Assembly: GCA_963784355.1 (NCBI GenBank)
Contig: CAWAQU010000002.1
Coordinates: 1 to 25,471 of the forward strand
Direction of reading: 5' to 3'
Length of the DNA stretch: 25,471 nt
From: an uncultured bacterium
GTDB taxonomy: Bacteria; Patescibacteriota; JACMRA01
Below, in pieces: positions 13,588 through 19,876 of the stretch. Numbering within the stretch: position 1 is the stretch's first letter; each line of letters begins with the position of its first letter. The notes under the pieces were generated by a model. That model saw only the letters and a list, made by a program, of their open reading frames with translations, had not been told where the DNA came from and did no database searches. A program made the translations under genes and the position numbers.

Positions 13588-14418
13588 ATGTCAGAACAAT
13601 TTAAGCAAAAAACAACAAATACAAGACAAGAGAAAGGATTAATAGCAAAAAAAATTCCATTAAACATTAAACAAATTGCTTCATTTACAACCGCAGCAAT
13701 TGTAATGTCAAATAATGCAGCTGTTATTGCAGCTGGTATCCAAAATTCTCAAAACTCTGTTCATGCTCAAACTAAAGAGACTGTTTCAAATTTAAATCCT
13801 AGTCAGAATTTAATTGCTCAATATTCAGATCCAAACGTAATCAATACTAATAAAATCGAACAAGAACAAGCAATGGTAAATGAATATGAGCAACCATTGT
13901 TACCATCAAATATAACTAATCTGATCAATCAACTTCTTGCAAAGTACGGTTACCTGAACAATTTAGATAAGAAAAGACAGATTACCGAGCTTATATTACT
14001 TATGCAACAAAGTGCAAGGTACCAATTTTGTAATGCAATGTTTAGAAAAGCTAACGGACTTCAGGAATTAGACCCAAACACTCCATATTATGCTGATCCA
14101 GAAGCATATAAATTTTTAGGTAACAGTGCACCAAAATACTTAACTCTTGTACAATTATTTCTAATTGAGTTAAGCAGAATCTACAGAATTATGGACAATA
14201 TTAGGGATCCGAAAATGGCTGATATCGCACAAAAGGCTGCTACCGAAATTTTAAGGCAAAATATACACCTTTGCAGGCAAACAAGGGAACAGAATTTAAA
14301 CCGTTTTGATCGAAATAATATACCAAAAAGAGGTGAAATAAGGCGCATATTAAATGAAATACCCAGAACACCGAAGTTGCCAATTAATAATCCAATTAGG
14401 ATAAAAGAGCAAGAATAA
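13588..14418 (+). CDS. Hypothetical protein, possibly exported
   Basis: 276-aa ORF with a basic N-terminus, an Ala-rich moderately hydrophobic stretch and a VHA-Q cleavage-like site; no family recognised. Confidence 0.7.
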   Translation: MSEQFKQKTTNTRQEKGLIAKKIPLNIKQIASFTTAAIVMSNNAAVIAAGIQNSQNSVHAQTKETVSNLNPSQNLIAQYSDPNVINTNKIEQEQAMVNEYEQPLLPSNITNLINQLLAKYGYLNNLDKKRQITELILLMQQSARYQFCNAMFRKANGLQELDPNTPYYADPEAYKFLGNSAPKYLTLVQLFLIELSRIYRIMDNIRDPKMADIAQKAATEILRQNIHLCRQTREQNLNRFDRNNIPKRGEIRRILNEIPRTPKLPINNPIRIKEQE

Positions 14419-14513: not shown

Positions 14514-15422
14514 TTATTTAACATTGATTGCATCATACCATTGCTTCAAATCAGTAGAAATCGTTTCATTACCTAAATTAAGTTTATGAAAATACTTTAG
14601 TATCGTTATGAGATGTGGGTAGTCAAACTCTATCTTATTTAAAATTTCAAGTGAATTAGCAATCGTAAATTGAGCCATATGAGAATTGAAACCATAGAAA
14701 GTTTTACCGTTTTTATACTCATATAGTTTCTTTTGATTTATATGCCAAGTTGGGATATCTTTTTTTAGAATTATATGTAGTATATCTGCATATGATTTTA
14801 AACTTGTTAAAACATACTTATTATATTTCCTATTGGGATCATTTAAAATAGAATTAGTGCACTCAATATCAAGTTCAAATAGATCAAAAAAGCTTAATAA
14901 GAAATCATAAGCAGGTTTTTGCATCCCTATTTCATAGAATTTGCTTTTTTTACTTAAATAGATATTTTGATAAAATTTTGTTAAACTGTCTGCAATTTTT
15001 TGATCTGCTAGCAATAAATTTTGCTTATATTCTTTTAGTGGAATTTTTACATTGTTTTTATCATGACAATACTTTATCATGTCATCCAAATATTGAATTT
15101 TATTTGTAAAGATGCTACTTAAATTATCTATTTCTTCATTACTTTCTTCTGTTTTACCGTTTGAACTGTTAAAGTGTAACATTGGAAAGTTTGATTCATA
15201 TCTTCCTTCGAGTGAATTAAAACTTATTTGTATGGCTAATCCAAAGCCATCTATCAAATTACAAATATCTGCTATTACTTCATTGTTTATCTTATCAATA
15301 TCTAAGTTTTTTAAATTAAAACGATTTTTTATTAATTCTAGTATTTGATTTGATAAGATCCCTAAATTTAATTTAGGTATTGATTTTTGAACGGGTTTTT
15401 CTAAAAAATGATTGTTAGCCAT
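14514..15422 (-). CDS. Hypothetical protein (very AT-rich)
   Basis: 302-aa ORF with a good upstream promoter; no family recognised. Confidence 0.7.
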   Translation of the reverse strand: MANNHFLEKPVQKSIPKLNLGILSNQILELIKNRFNLKNLDIDKINNEVIADICNLIDGFGLAIQISFNSLEGRYESNFPMLHFNSSNGKTEESNEEIDNLSSIFTNKIQYLDDMIKYCHDKNNVKIPLKEYKQNLLLADQKIADSLTKFYQNIYLSKKSKFYEIGMQKPAYDFLLSFFDLFELDIECTNSILNDPNRKYNKYVLTSLKSYADILHIILKKDIPTWHINQKKLYEYKNGKTFYGFNSHMAQFTIANSLEILNKIEFDYPHLITILKYFHKLNLGNETISTDLKQWYDAINVK

Positions 15423-15450
15423 ATTTTGATGATTTTTAACTATACTTTAA

Positions 15451-15680: not shown

Positions 15681-16592
15681 ATGTATACCTTTTTACCCTA
15701 CGCTTATTTAGAGGGGAAATTTCTACCTTTTAAAGATGCCAATATTTCTATTGCAACTCATGCCCTACACTACGGTACGGGAGCTTTTGGAGGATTAAGA
15801 GCCATACCAAATCCTGAAAATGAAAGGCAAATTTTACTATTTAGACTCGATAATCATGCAAAAAGATTGAGTAATAGTGCCAAACTTTTGCATTGGAATA
15901 TTAGTCCTGAGGAAATTAGAGACAAGATTATTGAGTTTATAAAAATCAACAAGCCTCAAGTTTCTTCATATCTTAGACCACTTATCTATACTTCCGATTT
16001 AGGTGTATCTCCCAGATTACATGAAATTGAGAAAAACTTTCTTATCTACGGCCTTGAACTTGGTGATTATTTGCCGGTTGAAGGCATAAAATGCCGGTTT
16101 AGCTCATGGTATAGACAGGAAGATCGCTCCTTGCCACTGCGCGGAAAAATTACCGGAGCCTACATTACCTCCTCTCTAGCCAAAACAGAAGCAGTAGAGT
16201 CGGGATTTGATGAGGCTATCATGTTTAATTCCCGAGGAAAAGTCTCAGAAGCCAGTGGCATGAATATTTTCATAGTTAGAGACGGTAAATTGATCACACC
16301 CGATGTAACACAAGATATCTTGGAAGGAATTACTCGAGATAGTGTGATTACCATAGCCAAGGATATGGGTATTGAAGTAATCGAACGAGAAGTAGATAGG
16401 TCAGAAATTTTAATTGCAGATGAAGTCTTTTTTACTGGTACGGCAGCTAAAGTAACTCCTGTAAATCAAGTAGAAAGTACAATGTTACCAAAAAATAGGC
16501 CAATTACGGAGAAATTAAAGCAGAAAATAACGGAAATTGTGGAAAATAGAAGTACTGATTATAAAGATTGGGTAACGGTTGTTGAGATTTAA
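15681..16592 (+). CDS. ilvE: Branched-chain amino acid aminotransferase (PLP fold IV)
   Basis: HALHYGTGAFGGLR, RGKITGAY (PLP lysine), EASGMNIF, LEGITR, EVFFTGTAA. Confidence 0.95.
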   Translation: MYTFLPYAYLEGKFLPFKDANISIATHALHYGTGAFGGLRAIPNPENERQILLFRLDNHAKRLSNSAKLLHWNISPEEIRDKIIEFIKINKPQVSSYLRPLIYTSDLGVSPRLHEIEKNFLIYGLELGDYLPVEGIKCRFSSWYRQEDRSLPLRGKITGAYITSSLAKTEAVESGFDEAIMFNSRGKVSEASGMNIFIVRDGKLITPDVTQDILEGITRDSVITIAKDMGIEVIEREVDRSEILIADEVFFTGTAAKVTPVNQVESTMLPKNRPITEKLKQKITEIVENRSTDYKDWVTVVEI

Positions 16593-16661
16593 AATTGGAT
16601 TTGTGTTAGTAGGATATAAATTTAGCTAATCTGCACAAATTATCTCCACATTGAAAAGCAT

Positions 16662-16691
16662 ACTTGACCTATGTCGAATATTATGTTAAGA
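16662..16691. other. dif/cer-like imperfect palindrome (alternatively a promoter)
   Basis: ACTTGACCTAT-GTCGAATA-TTATGTTAAGA; the right arm matches the XerD arm TTATGTTAAAT at 9 of 11 positions. Confidence 0.3.
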
Positions 16692-16742
16692 GTTTATGTG
16701 CAAACTTTAGTTTTTTAGGGTATTTCTATTTTAAAGTGGGCC

Positions 16743-16946
16743 TTGATTGTTTATTTCAATTTTGCAGATGGTAGCGGACAAATTCTTGAAATGGGATTAA
16801 CCAATCAATCTTGCCAACAAGCACTAGTGCAACTCAAGGAAATAGTATCTCAACATGTAGATTTTCGGGGAGCAAAATGCCTCCCCTACCGAGGTCTACA
16901 AAGCCTAGAACAATTACAACAACAAGTAGGAGGTAAAGGTCACTAA
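16743..16946 (+). CDS. Small hypothetical protein (67 aa or slightly longer; start uncertain)
   Basis: Frame is open from 16719 (GISILKWALIVYFNFADG...C...C...); possible starts TTG 16743 or ATT 16728; followed by a terminator. Confidence 0.5.
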   Translation: MIVYFNFADGSGQILEMGLTNQSCQQALVQLKEIVSQHVDFRGAKCLPYRGLQSLEQLQQQVGGKGH

Positions 16947-17017
16947 ATGACTTTTTCCTAAGTTTCAAGAGGATCGGTTGAGCTATTTTCTTGCTCCTGG
17001 TCCTTATTTATCATCAG

Positions 17018-17046
17018 TTCCACCCTAAAGGTGGAGTTTTTGTTTT
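17018..17046 (+). terminator. Intrinsic terminator, possibly bidirectional, between the small ORF and pepP
   Basis: UUCCACC-CUAAA-GGUGGAG followed by UUUUUGUUUU. Confidence 0.8.
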
Positions 17047-17073
17047 AATTTGTTCATTTAAAGAAAACCTAAT

Positions 17074-18468
17074 TTACTTCTCTATACCCTCAGTCAGCAC
17101 TTCAACGCCGTGATCTGTAATTGCAATATCATCTTCAATTCTTACTCCCAAACCTCTTAATTCAGCTGGTATAGTCTCATCATTGGCATCAAAATACAAT
17201 CCCGGTTCTACTGTAAATACCATACCCGATTTTAATTGCAGAGGTTGGCCTTGAGTATCTCTATAATCTCCCGCATCATGGACATCTAGACCAAGCCAGT
17301 GAGAAGTGCCATGCATATAATACTTTTTGTAATCAGATTTTTTAAGATTTTCTTCCAAAGTTCCCTCAAGTAAATTTAGATTGATCAAACCTTCACACAA
17401 TACTTTTACTGCCAATTCATGCAAACTCTGTAGAGTTAAAATTTTATCTTGAACCTCTACTACTCCACCACCGTTATTTAAATCTACTTTATTTTTGCTT
17501 CCAAATACTTTTATAAGCTCCTCAATTACCGCCTGATTGGCTTTCAAAACCAGGTTGTAAATTTCCTGTTGCACGCCACTCATTTCAGTACCGGTAACAA
17601 AAGTACGAGTCACATCACTAGCATAGTAATTGTATTCACAACCTGCATCTATCAATAAAAACTTATTATTTTTAAGTAAATTATTATTTTTGGTATAGTG
17701 CAGAATAGTAGCATTTTTTCCTCCGGCTACAATTGGTGGATAAGACCAGGTCAAGCCATTTTGCTTATATGTATTTAGTATTTCGGCCTCTATCTGGTAT
17801 TCGTAGGTTTCAGGGTAATTAATTGAATCCAAAAAAGGTTGAGCAATTACCTGTTTTTCTCCAAACCAACCTTCTAAATTTTCTTTGATTTTACTAAAAG
17901 CCAAGGTATTTATTCTAGCTGCCTGCCTCATTTGCTCCAGTTCCCAAGGTGATTTTATAATTCTTAATTTTTTAAGTAGACTACTTTTTTTACTTACACC
18001 CGTATCACTGCCACTTTCCCCTACCAAATCCATTATCTTTTTTCTTAGATTCACAAAATTATCTCCTTGATAATCAAAATAAACTTGACTCGTACCCTTT
18101 AAAATATCACTTAATTTCTGTAAAAGTTCTTCAAAGTTACATACTTCATTTGCTCCCGATATTTCTAACATCTTATCAAGTCCCAATCTTTCACCAGTCC
18201 AGGTTTCTTTAAGCTTGTCCTTGGTTTGCCCGAAAATAATCGTTTTTACCGTATCATACTGGCTCTTTACAATTACTAAAGCGCTGTTTTCCTCGTCAAT
18301 TCCTGTGAGATACCAAAAATCAGAATTTTGTCTAAAAGGGTATTCAACATCACTATTTCTTTTTTGTACTTCGCCTGATAACACAATAAATACAGAATTT
18401 GGCTCCATTAGGTTTACCAATTTTACCCTGCGTTTTTCTATTTCATCAAGTGGAACAAAGTTCTGCAT
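17074..18468 (-). CDS. pepP: Xaa-Pro aminopeptidase (aminopeptidase P, M24B)
   Basis: FRQNSDFWYLTG, ILHY, LIDAGCE..YASDVTRT, HGTSHWLGLDVHD, TVEPGLY, GVRIEDD. Confidence 0.95.
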   Translation of the reverse strand: MQNFVPLDEIEKRRVKLVNLMEPNSVFIVLSGEVQKRNSDVEYPFRQNSDFWYLTGIDEENSALVIVKSQYDTVKTIIFGQTKDKLKETWTGERLGLDKMLEISGANEVCNFEELLQKLSDILKGTSQVYFDYQGDNFVNLRKKIMDLVGESGSDTGVSKKSSLLKKLRIIKSPWELEQMRQAARINTLAFSKIKENLEGWFGEKQVIAQPFLDSINYPETYEYQIEAEILNTYKQNGLTWSYPPIVAGGKNATILHYTKNNNLLKNNKFLLIDAGCEYNYYASDVTRTFVTGTEMSGVQQEIYNLVLKANQAVIEELIKVFGSKNKVDLNNGGGVVEVQDKILTLQSLHELAVKVLCEGLINLNLLEGTLEENLKKSDYKKYYMHGTSHWLGLDVHDAGDYRDTQGQPLQLKSGMVFTVEPGLYFDANDETIPAELRGLGVRIEDDIAITDHGVEVLTEGIEK

Positions 18469-19282: not shown

Positions 19283-19876
19283 CTAAATTTTTTCCCAATA
19301 CGCACCATCAGCACTAGTTGGACCGGCAGGCTCCCCGGATAAACACACTTCACAAACCGGAAATATTTCTCCCTCTGCAAAAGTAGCAATATAGCCACAA
19401 TCAACACAGAGATAATCCCCCGTTTCAGGCACTATTTGCCCCCATTTATATAGATCTTTTTCGTTTGGATCAGGATTTACATAGTTATCAGCAAAGTCGG
19501 ACACTACCTGAACCCACTCATACTCATGCTCAGGATTCTCTTTGTGGATTAAATATTTTAGATTATCATTTTCCTTCTTAAATAAAATTAGGTACTCCTG
19601 TAATTTGGATTTGGATTTTAAAAATTCTGCTTGATTTAAAATTTCACGATCTACATCTAGGATATAATCACTATTTGTAACTCCATCTGTAGCATTTGTA
19701 GTCAGGAAAAGGATTTTAATATTTTTCGCCTTGAGTTCATCAACGCGCTTGTTTAGTTCAGCCTCAACTTTGGGAAAAAGTTTGCTGGAAGGCTCCAGAA
19801 CAAAAACTGCGATCAATTCTTCTGATATATTAGAGAGCTTAAAATCAGCATTATTTGATAAATAACTCAAGGCCAT
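19283..19876 (-). CDS. Hypothetical protein with C-terminal zinc ribbon (CxxC...CxxC) and possible thioredoxin-fold N-terminus
   Basis: GQIVPETGDYLCVDCG...GEIFPVCEVC...W; first gene of a probable operon with ribF and pepP (3-4 nt gaps). Confidence 0.75.
   Translation of the reverse strand: MALSYLSNNADFKLSNISEELIAVFVLEPSSKLFPKVEAELNKRVDELKAKNIKILFLTTNATDGVTNSDYILDVDREILNQAEFLKSKSKLQEYLILFKKENDNLKYLIHKENPEHEYEWVQVVSDFADNYVNPDPNEKDLYKWGQIVPETGDYLCVDCGYIATFAEGEIFPVCEVCLSGEPAGPTSADGAYWEKI

Follow-up and report, generated by a model that had tools for sequence, protein, structure and literature searches.

Near its pepP end, the 481-nt spacer (positions 16593–17073) that separates the convergent genes ilvE (+ strand) and pepP (− strand) in an uncultured bacterium of the Patescibacteriota carries one copy of a previously undescribed, lineage-specific and sequence-constrained terminator element, here called the module, which recurs after many small genes. 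The spacer lies in a 25,471-nt stretch of DNA (contig CAWAQU010000002.1, hereafter C2, of assembly GCA_963784355.1), which was analysed in full and is referred to below as the window. Within this spacer, an initial annotation had flagged a hairpin-rich unit of about 350 nt, at positions 16706–17046, with an embedded small open reading frame (ORF). We consider this unit to be probably composite, made up of a probable orphan small gene, two locus-specific hairpins and the module copy. Copies of the module, which occur repeatedly in several genomes, share their structure and conserved unpaired positions, covary in their stems, and are placed after genes with a strand bias.

The source genome (G000; 1.14 Mb, 33% GC, 13 contigs, an estimated 81% complete) was compared with a family set of 26 genomes from 18 genera, in which it is itself included and in which G001 is its congener; G025 represents the sister family. 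The lineage is thinly sampled, with a PepP identity of only 48% to the same-genus representative and of 52% to the best metagenome contig.

A two-hairpin terminator module in many copies

The module (Table 1) joins an accessory hairpin to a terminator. The accessory hairpin, hairpin A, at 16969–17005, has a UU bulge and a GAGC/GCUC inner stem (local structure 16969–17006, −16.8 kcal/mol) and corresponds to the fourth hairpin of the initial annotation. A linker with UCAU at 17011–17014 leads into the terminator, a stem of nine pairs (17016–17024/17030–17038) with the loop CUAAA at 17025–17029 and the apex CC-CUAAA-GG, and this stem is followed by the tail TTTGTTTTAA, of the form U5GU4, which ends at 17046. 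The pepP stop sits 25 nt from the 3' end of the module.

This 3' end is the only part of the spacer with relatives. BLAST returned terminator-like matches at three other loci of the source genome and in G001, G007 and G008, a motif scan gave five copies with the same CTAAA loop, and the aligned copies share a module of ~65–80 nt, which extends beyond a single hairpin. In the G001 copy, hairpin A has different outer and inner stems within the same architecture (UU bulge, U-rich loop, UAUCAU linker, CUAAA terminator).

A covariance model built from the window copy alone (R1) gave full-length matches in 17 of the 26 family genomes at E ≤ 1, with six G001 copies scoring 41–50 bits; 43 matches were then aligned and the model was rebuilt as R2. 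At E ≤ 0.001 per genome, R2 detected 21 copies in G001, eight in G008, five in G000, four each in G018 and G022, three in G006, and two each in G013 and G020, counts that are lower bounds because only 150 first-look candidates per genome were scored. Matches at this threshold occur in at least 12 of the 26 family genomes and at least nine of the 18 genera; the E-values of both models are rough because their calibration was shortened. Among 151 sampled genomes of the phylum, those listed having sizes of 0.7–1.6 Mb, E-values below 1e-4 were obtained only within the family (G000, G008, G013) and for the sister-family genome G025, which has three copies (best E 5.8e-7). The family genome G016 has a match at E 1.5e-4, and six other genomes of this sample have one marginal match each (E 3e-4 to 7e-4).

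Across the whole window no Rfam release 15 family reached its gathering score, a known-family hit being one of the outcomes that the initial annotation had named as refuting a new RNA, and no family shares the features of the module at that score. An E-value search of 16550–17120 returned chance-level matches only (the best, RefA1, scored 17.9 bits where its gathering score is 94), and seven other module copies also matched no Rfam family. The absence of a transfer-messenger RNA (tmRNA) signature, noted earlier from the sequence, was borne out by ARAGORN, which reported no tRNA or tmRNA genes in 16400–17300. A limited search of the literature turned up no description of such a motif.

Covariation and conserved unpaired positions

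We evaluated pairing in an alignment of 49 module copies (A6), which were chosen and aligned by a structure-aware model. Among 957 cells, 91.5% are paired, compared with 62.2% in shuffles and 39–46% with slid partners, and GU and UG together number 87 versus 12 for AC and CA, although the structure-aware choice and alignment of the copies inflate both the pairing and the GU counts. The excess of GU over AC is as expected for RNA of the + (module) strand. Double changes occur in 21 of the 22 pairs, with 275 double-change cells against 88.8 expected, a value reached by none of 500 shuffles; by eye, the window copy and a G001 copy differ by five double compensatory changes in hairpin A. Stems of different genera differ but preserve their pairs by changing on both sides, a pattern that points to selection on RNA structure and not to simple copying.

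The structure-blind combination of MAFFT and RNAalifold, applied to 16 of the 49 copies, recovered the terminator helix with compensation in all six of its pairs, and alignment-free folding of single hairpin-A segments (41 copies of at least 30 nt) gave a mean z of −3.99, with 35 of the 41 at or below −2. Besides the inflation noted above, some results tell against a uniform two-hairpin element: MAFFT and RNAalifold on these 16 copies did not recover hairpin A, the loop length of which varies; three of the 41 hairpin-A segments have z above −1; and in eight of the 49 copies the hairpin-A segment is absent or shorter than 30 nt, leaving the terminator half only.

The stem-loop and the U-run are kept in all 49 aligned copies. 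The conserved unpaired or apical positions are the uCAU linker, the CC-CUAAA-GG apex and the U-UUUUGU tail, the last of which is invariant, and G-UUG-A-GC...GCUCC is also conserved in the G000, G001 and G013 copies.

Genomic context of the module copies

In 40 of the 49 copies, an open frame of 50 or more codons on the same strand ends no more than 120 nt upstream (median 38 nt), and a converging frame lies within 120 nt of the 3' end in 31 of the 49; both counts are approximate because the open-frame criterion admits spurious frames. The genes upstream are mostly small (49–330 aa), hypothetical and mutually unrelated, except for three pairs of paralogues. At locus L148 of G001, module copies at 1501–1580 and 2143–2223 stand behind the two members of a tandem pair of small paralogous genes (34% identical), and at L178 of the same genome two convergent copies stand back to back, 6 nt apart (1501–1579 on the + strand and 1586–1662 on the − strand). 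For the copy at 13651–13712 on contig C3 of G000, the nearest same-strand frame that passes this 50-codon criterion lies 506 nt upstream.

A further point on the negative side is that the module is not the general terminator of G000: CTAAA is the commonest loop there, yet it occurs in only 6 of 189 (~3%) crude terminator-like hairpins.

Some further observations concern individual loci. The C3 copy at 13651–13712 (+; locus L176) and another at 19757–19841 (−; L165) are inverted relative to each other and bracket ~6 kb, in which one ORF contains, by eye, a KGGVGKTT Walker-A-like motif. On contig C33 of G007 (L004, ~1440–1530), the terminator half of the module, with the CUAAA loop, directly follows a sequence ending in ...GGTTCGAGTCC...CCACCA, which looks by eye like the 3' end of a tRNA gene. 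No match to the Y1 transposase family PF01797 was found in G000 (81% complete) or G001 (88% complete), so that an association with a REP-associated tyrosine transposase (RAYT) was not found; three PF01797 matches in G008 (L212, L213, L214), each with an in-frame stop, apparently derive from decayed IS200/IS605-type genes.

Folding of the flagged unit

All five hairpins of the initial annotation and its terminator were located by minimum free energy folding, local folding and a terminator scan. The first pair, 16743–49/16802–08, is a repeat with 80% complementarity and shows no excess stability. The description of the unit as almost fully tiled by hairpins applies to its 3' 200 nt and fails for its 5' 145 nt, which fold no better than their shuffles (Table 1). 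Compared with shuffled controls, a check that the initial annotation had proposed, the whole 341 nt fold better on the + strand only (z −2.67 on the + strand, with 1 of 100 shuffles as good; z −0.44 on the − strand). The unit is richer in GC (0.385–0.415) than its immediate flanks (0.30–0.35) and than the contig (0.335), in line with the earlier impression of a GC-rich region, but it does not exceed the middle of ilvE (0.44).

Table 1. Features and tested segments of the ilvE–pepP region. Fold z-scores are given with the number of shuffles as stable as the native sequence in brackets.
Feature	Positions	Strand	Fold z, + strand	Fold z, − strand	Description
ilvE, class IV aminotransferase	15681–16592	+			Pfam Aminotran_4, E 1.6e-46
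Featureless spacer part	16593–16742	+	−0.63	−0.54	
Segment	16706–16850		+0.66 (220/300)	−0.37	
Orphan ORF, 67 codons from TTG	16743–16946	+			Codon-position periodicity; no homologue
Segment	16850–16905		−4.18 (0/300)	−1.72	
Segment	16850–17012		−3.73 (1/300)	−0.58	Terminator excluded
Segment	16850–17046		−4.36 (0/300)	−1.60	197 nt
Hairpin 2	16856–16900	+			−19.9 kcal/mol; within the 3' third of the ORF; built from rare GC-rich codons
Segment	16905–17012		−2.55 (0/300)	−0.07	
Hairpin 3	16927–16961	+			−10.8 kcal/mol; ORF TAA (16944–16946) in the loop region; AGGAGG in the 5' arm
Two-hairpin terminator module	16968–17048	+			Models R1/R2, covariation, terminator scan
pepP, Xaa-Pro aminopeptidase	17074–18468	−			Pfam Peptidase_M24 and AMP_N

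Because these segments were picked after looking at the sequence, we calibrated z across the genome. Seventy random 197-nt genome windows had a mean z of 0.03 (sd 1.15, minimum −4.13). With an approximate z, for which the shuffled mean and sd were obtained by regression (128 training windows, R2 0.97), the segment 16851–17047 on the + strand ranked first of 1,012 contig windows, and this 3' segment scored −5.0 to −5.4, compared with a minimum of −4.73 among 2,589 random genome windows. Per 10 kb and strand there are 5.8 local structures at or below −16 kcal/mol and 1.04 at or below −19.9 kcal/mol; stable hairpins alone are not rare, and it is the composition-corrected score that stands out. 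Elsewhere in the window, overlapping 197-nt windows on the + strand at 14600–15450 gave approximate z values of −3.85, −3.74, −3.11 and −2.87, for which the regression is perhaps less reliable at such composition; they are antisense to the ORF 14514–15422 (302 aa, no Pfam family, in a region of 23–27% GC), which scores as coding (0.057 per nt).

Hairpins 2 and 3 had no conserved counterparts in 40 relatives and only one weak match in their own genome by nhmmer and blastn; a weakly similar start of a hairpin-3-like structure precedes the module copy at C3 19780(−). The DNA search of the same 40 relatives matched only the terminator part, leaving the body of the region without relatives, and the search for homologues and covariation proposed earlier succeeded for the 3' module alone. 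In the same way, the suggestion of a new structured RNA is upheld for ~80 nt (hairpin 4 and the terminator, which are conserved, covarying and multi-copy), not for 350 nt. The region has no match in the phage and plasmid collections. The DNA downstream of ilvE showed nothing similar in four cyanobacterial-like loci, four other loci or five family genomes. The region may be a small inserted element, the third alternative of the initial annotation: the searches located the ORF and hairpins 2 and 3 nowhere else, and the closest genome that could show an empty site has a PepP identity of 48%. No terminal inverted repeats were found around the region, and an origin as a miniature inverted-repeat transposable element (MITE) was rejected on that basis. 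An integron attC site was also rejected: the attC core is GTTRRRY, which GUUGAGC fits by eye, but the partner arm is not its complement, a judgement made without a dedicated tool.

The small ORF

The embedded small ORF pointed out by the initial annotation is present, and its stop codon falls within the hairpin 3 loop region. Its frame is open from 16719 (75 codons), with an alternative ATG start at 16791 (51 codons). The GC content at codon positions 1, 2 and 3 is 0.60, 0.33 and 0.25, which gives a difference of 0.347 between positions 1 and 3. In 600 shuffled open frames with 65 codons or more, the difference never came this high (null mean 0.018, sd 0.075). The periodicity extends to the unstructured 5' half of the ORF (0.49, 0.31 and 0.27). 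The mean ln of relative synonymous codon usage (RSCU) is 0.087 for the ORF, 0.122 for ilvE and 0.174 for pepP. The rare codons CGG, CTC, CCC and CGA (RSCU 0.1–0.4) are concentrated in hairpin 2, as an RNA structure superimposed on coding would give. A Markov coding score of +5.0 bits (0.022 per nt) places the ORF in the top 5.3% of shuffled open frames.

Spacing relative to the module provides a separate line of evidence. Only 21 nt separate the ORF stop from the module, a spacing like that at other copies, compared with 375 nt for the ilvE stop, and the nearest same-strand open frame (≥50 codons) lies at 325 nt or more in only 4 of the 49 copies; this spacing speaks for the ORF as a present or recent gene. 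ORF and ilvE share the same frame, and a read-through extension of ilvE was considered and rejected, as four stops, of all three kinds, intervene. From these sequence properties, the ORF is most likely a genuine small-protein gene.

A number of results weigh against this interpretation. The Markov score is only at the 5th percentile of real gene pieces, and 11% of 1,409 shadow ORFs and 38% of 337 mixed intergenic ORFs score as high; when the spacer is shuffled by dinucleotides, 17.7% of 2,000 shuffles contain a frame of at least 75 codons. The start is uncertain, neither TTG 16743 nor ATG 16791 having T at −1. A search of 5.8 billion clusters retrieved only the ORF product itself, and among 1.84 billion representatives the only other match was a Q-rich repeat protein (E 1.2e-4). 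AlphaFold gave a five-model mean pLDDT of 60.8 for the ORF product, compared with 62.6 for one antisense control ORF (61 aa).

Q, G, K and E abound in the 67-aa product, which is polar and has no match in Pfam, the 25 family genomes or viral contigs. From the single sequence, AlphaFold modelled it as beta-beta-alpha-beta-alpha (best model pLDDT 74.9, pTM 0.55; best model of the antisense control 63.8 and 0.35). The AlphaFold result does not discriminate between the two, and we do not count this model as evidence for the ORF. With this product, the best score in the ESM Atlas was 0.86, under the lead level of 0.9, and Foldseek searches of the model against PDB and BFVD gave nothing at E ≤ 0.001; the best PDB match, a chain of the phage T4 antitoxin Dmd (E 0.63), was taken as chance.

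Translation initiation in the source genome has its own character. A Shine-Dalgarno-like tetramer precedes 5.5% of 621 long ORFs, compared with a background of 7.8%, and the 16S rRNA tail carries CCUCC despite this near-absent use; T stands at −1 before ATG in 71% of the 621 genes. Since only 5.5% of these genes have a Shine-Dalgarno sequence, its absence is no argument against the ORF. Within hairpin 3 (16928–16961), AGGAGG is followed 13 nt on by a mini-frame of four codons, ATG ACT TTT TCC TAA, and both are probably meaningless because the genome does not use Shine-Dalgarno sequences.

The cyanobacterial-like ilvE gene

The upstream neighbour has a distinct affinity. The window ilvE is 68–70% identical to cyanobacterial records (Pleurocapsa sp. 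and two cyanobacterial metagenome-assembled genomes, MAGs) and to one MAG labelled 'uncultured bacterium'; the next best named match, a Patescibacteria group MAG, is 42% identical. In the family, ilvE is present in 6 of 25 genomes, with 57–62% identity to the window gene. Because it is closer to the cyanobacterial genes than to those of the family, a transfer of ilvE between this lineage and cyanobacteria is suggested.

Proposed mechanism and alternative explanations

In the composite reading, the ORF would share a transcript with ilvE or start from a promoter that went unrecognised: the promoter scan returned no consensus site on the + strand, although the organism's own promoter rules may differ, and there is no terminator between ilvE and the ORF, the only terminator-like site in 16300–17300 being that at 17016. 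The last third of the ORF and its stop codon would be embedded in the two locus-specific RNA hairpins, 2 and 3. The module would act in the + strand RNA and end the transcript of ilvE and the ORF, or of the ORF alone, a role that we infer because it combines a hairpin with a U-tract and is located after genes. Hairpin A, together with hairpins 2 and 3, would probably shield the 3' end from exonucleases, and hairpin A and the conserved unpaired bases, which point to a specific partner, probably protect this end or mark it for a lineage-specific factor.

One could instead view the 3' ~200 nt (16850–17046) as a stand-alone small RNA (sRNA), or one derived from a 3' untranslated region (UTR), with the frame untranslated and with the other module copies as the 3' domains of paralogous sRNAs, UCAU and CUAAA acting in trans. 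Among the windows of the contig and the genome sample none is as structured as this segment, on the + strand only, which would fit such an RNA, as would the rare codons that make up hairpin 2, the lack of both a homologue and a good start context for the ORF, the unpaired positions conserved across genera, and the C3 copy with no open frame for 506 nt upstream. The codon periodicity, however, unmatched in 600 shuffles, is also seen in the unstructured 5' half; the scan for promoter-like sites returned none on the + strand; 40 of the 49 copies are located behind an open frame as a 3'-UTR element would be; and hairpins 2 and 3 are not conserved elsewhere. On balance we regard this explanation as unlikely. 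Equally, the module could be a selfish repeat of the repetitive extragenic palindrome (REP) or MITE type, spreading or homogenised within genomes, with the ORF and hairpins 2 and 3 as the functionless, decaying remnant of a cassette that arrived with the module or with ilvE. The stems argue otherwise, since they differ across genera and keep their pairing through double changes, and so do the bias in strand with respect to genes, the 87:12 ratio of GU to AC, the lack of a Y1 (RAYT-type) transposase in G000 and in the 21-copy G001, the lack of terminal inverted repeats, and the lack of similarity to DNA downstream of cyanobacterial ilvE, phages or plasmids. Yet many G001 copies in A6 have, by eye, almost the same outer stem, which recent amplification would produce; the genes ahead of the copies are small, hypothetical and unrelated, although tandem paralogues with a copy each are among them; the body of the region is unique to G000; and the neighbourhood may have been transferred, given the affinity of ilvE. 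We therefore find a selfish or relic origin doubtful, and prefer the composite reading to both.

The initial annotation had also raised a translationally locked mRNA like those of type I toxin–antitoxin systems, which would comprise a message for a small toxic peptide and an antisense RNA. A small ORF lies within a structured RNA, with AGGAGG buried in hairpin 3, and a hydrophobic frame of 40 codons is found at 16991–17113, but we consider such a locus highly improbable. The possible ORF starts lie in a segment with no excess structure (16706–16850), and in a genome in which Shine-Dalgarno sequences are hardly used AGGAGG probably does not represent a masked ribosome-binding site. The predicted peptide of 67 aa is polar, with the modelled fold described above (hydrophobicity was judged from the sequence, with no transmembrane predictor), the 40-codon frame continues through the terminator into pepP, and there is no Pfam match (the PADLOC library was not searched). 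For an antisense RNA, folding on the − strand is unremarkable (z −0.44 for the whole unit and −0.58 for 16850–17012), and no promoter-like site was seen inside the region, by promoter rules that may not hold for this organism.

Comparison with known elements

With intrinsic terminators the module shares a GC-containing stem-loop followed by a U-tract, on the coding strand and at the 3' end of genes. Ordinary intrinsic terminators, however, are not conserved in sequence, whereas the module keeps its CUAAA loop, CC/GG closing pairs, U5GU tail, UCAU and a second, bulged hairpin, and does so across genera in which PepP is only 39–48% identical.

The REP/BIME (bacterial interspersed mosaic element) repeats of enterobacteria and the Correia, BOX and RUP elements are multi-copy extragenic hairpins, found mostly downstream of genes or between convergent genes, and they are believed to stabilise upstream mRNA or to terminate transcription. 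The module resembles them in being multi-copy, extragenic and hairpin-forming, in lying mostly close behind genes or between convergent ones, and in its signs of amplification within G001, where a REP-like spread is possible. It differs in the absence of a Y1/RAYT transposase from G000 and G001, in stems that covary between genomes rather than being conserved in sequence, in its built-in U-tract terminator, in its strict orientation to the upstream gene, and in its low copy number, 5–21 per genome in these two genomes. The general class of 3'-UTR-derived sRNAs offers a third comparison, as it too combines hairpins with the terminator of an mRNA 3' end and has conserved unpaired nucleotides able to pair or bind; in contrast, the module follows unrelated genes by the dozen, which a trans-acting sRNA would not usually do.

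Implications

Conservation of the loop, the tail and the flanking bases across genera with 39–48% identical proteins suggests a dedicated protein or RNA partner, which generic intrinsic terminators do not need. We offer, as a speculation that is itself improbable, that the invariant unpaired bases (UCAU, CUAAA and the UU bulge by GAGC/GCUC) are recognised by a lineage-specific factor that binds or processes RNA, and that the module tags an exchangeable pool of small, fast-evolving accessory genes (49–330 aa, mostly orphans) in this order. If so, the module would represent a new 3'-end 'cassette tag' that joins termination, stabilisation and perhaps mobility, and the 67-aa orphan would be one such cassette, inserted beside the cyanobacterial-like ilvE.

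With the covariance model and the 49 copies, a vaguely defined, hairpin-rich spacer has become a searchable RNA motif in an uncultivated lineage with small genomes, a setting in which non-coding elements are almost unknown. As the module is found preferentially after small orphan genes, it lends independent support to such genes, the 67-codon ORF included, and may help to annotate small proteins in these genomes.

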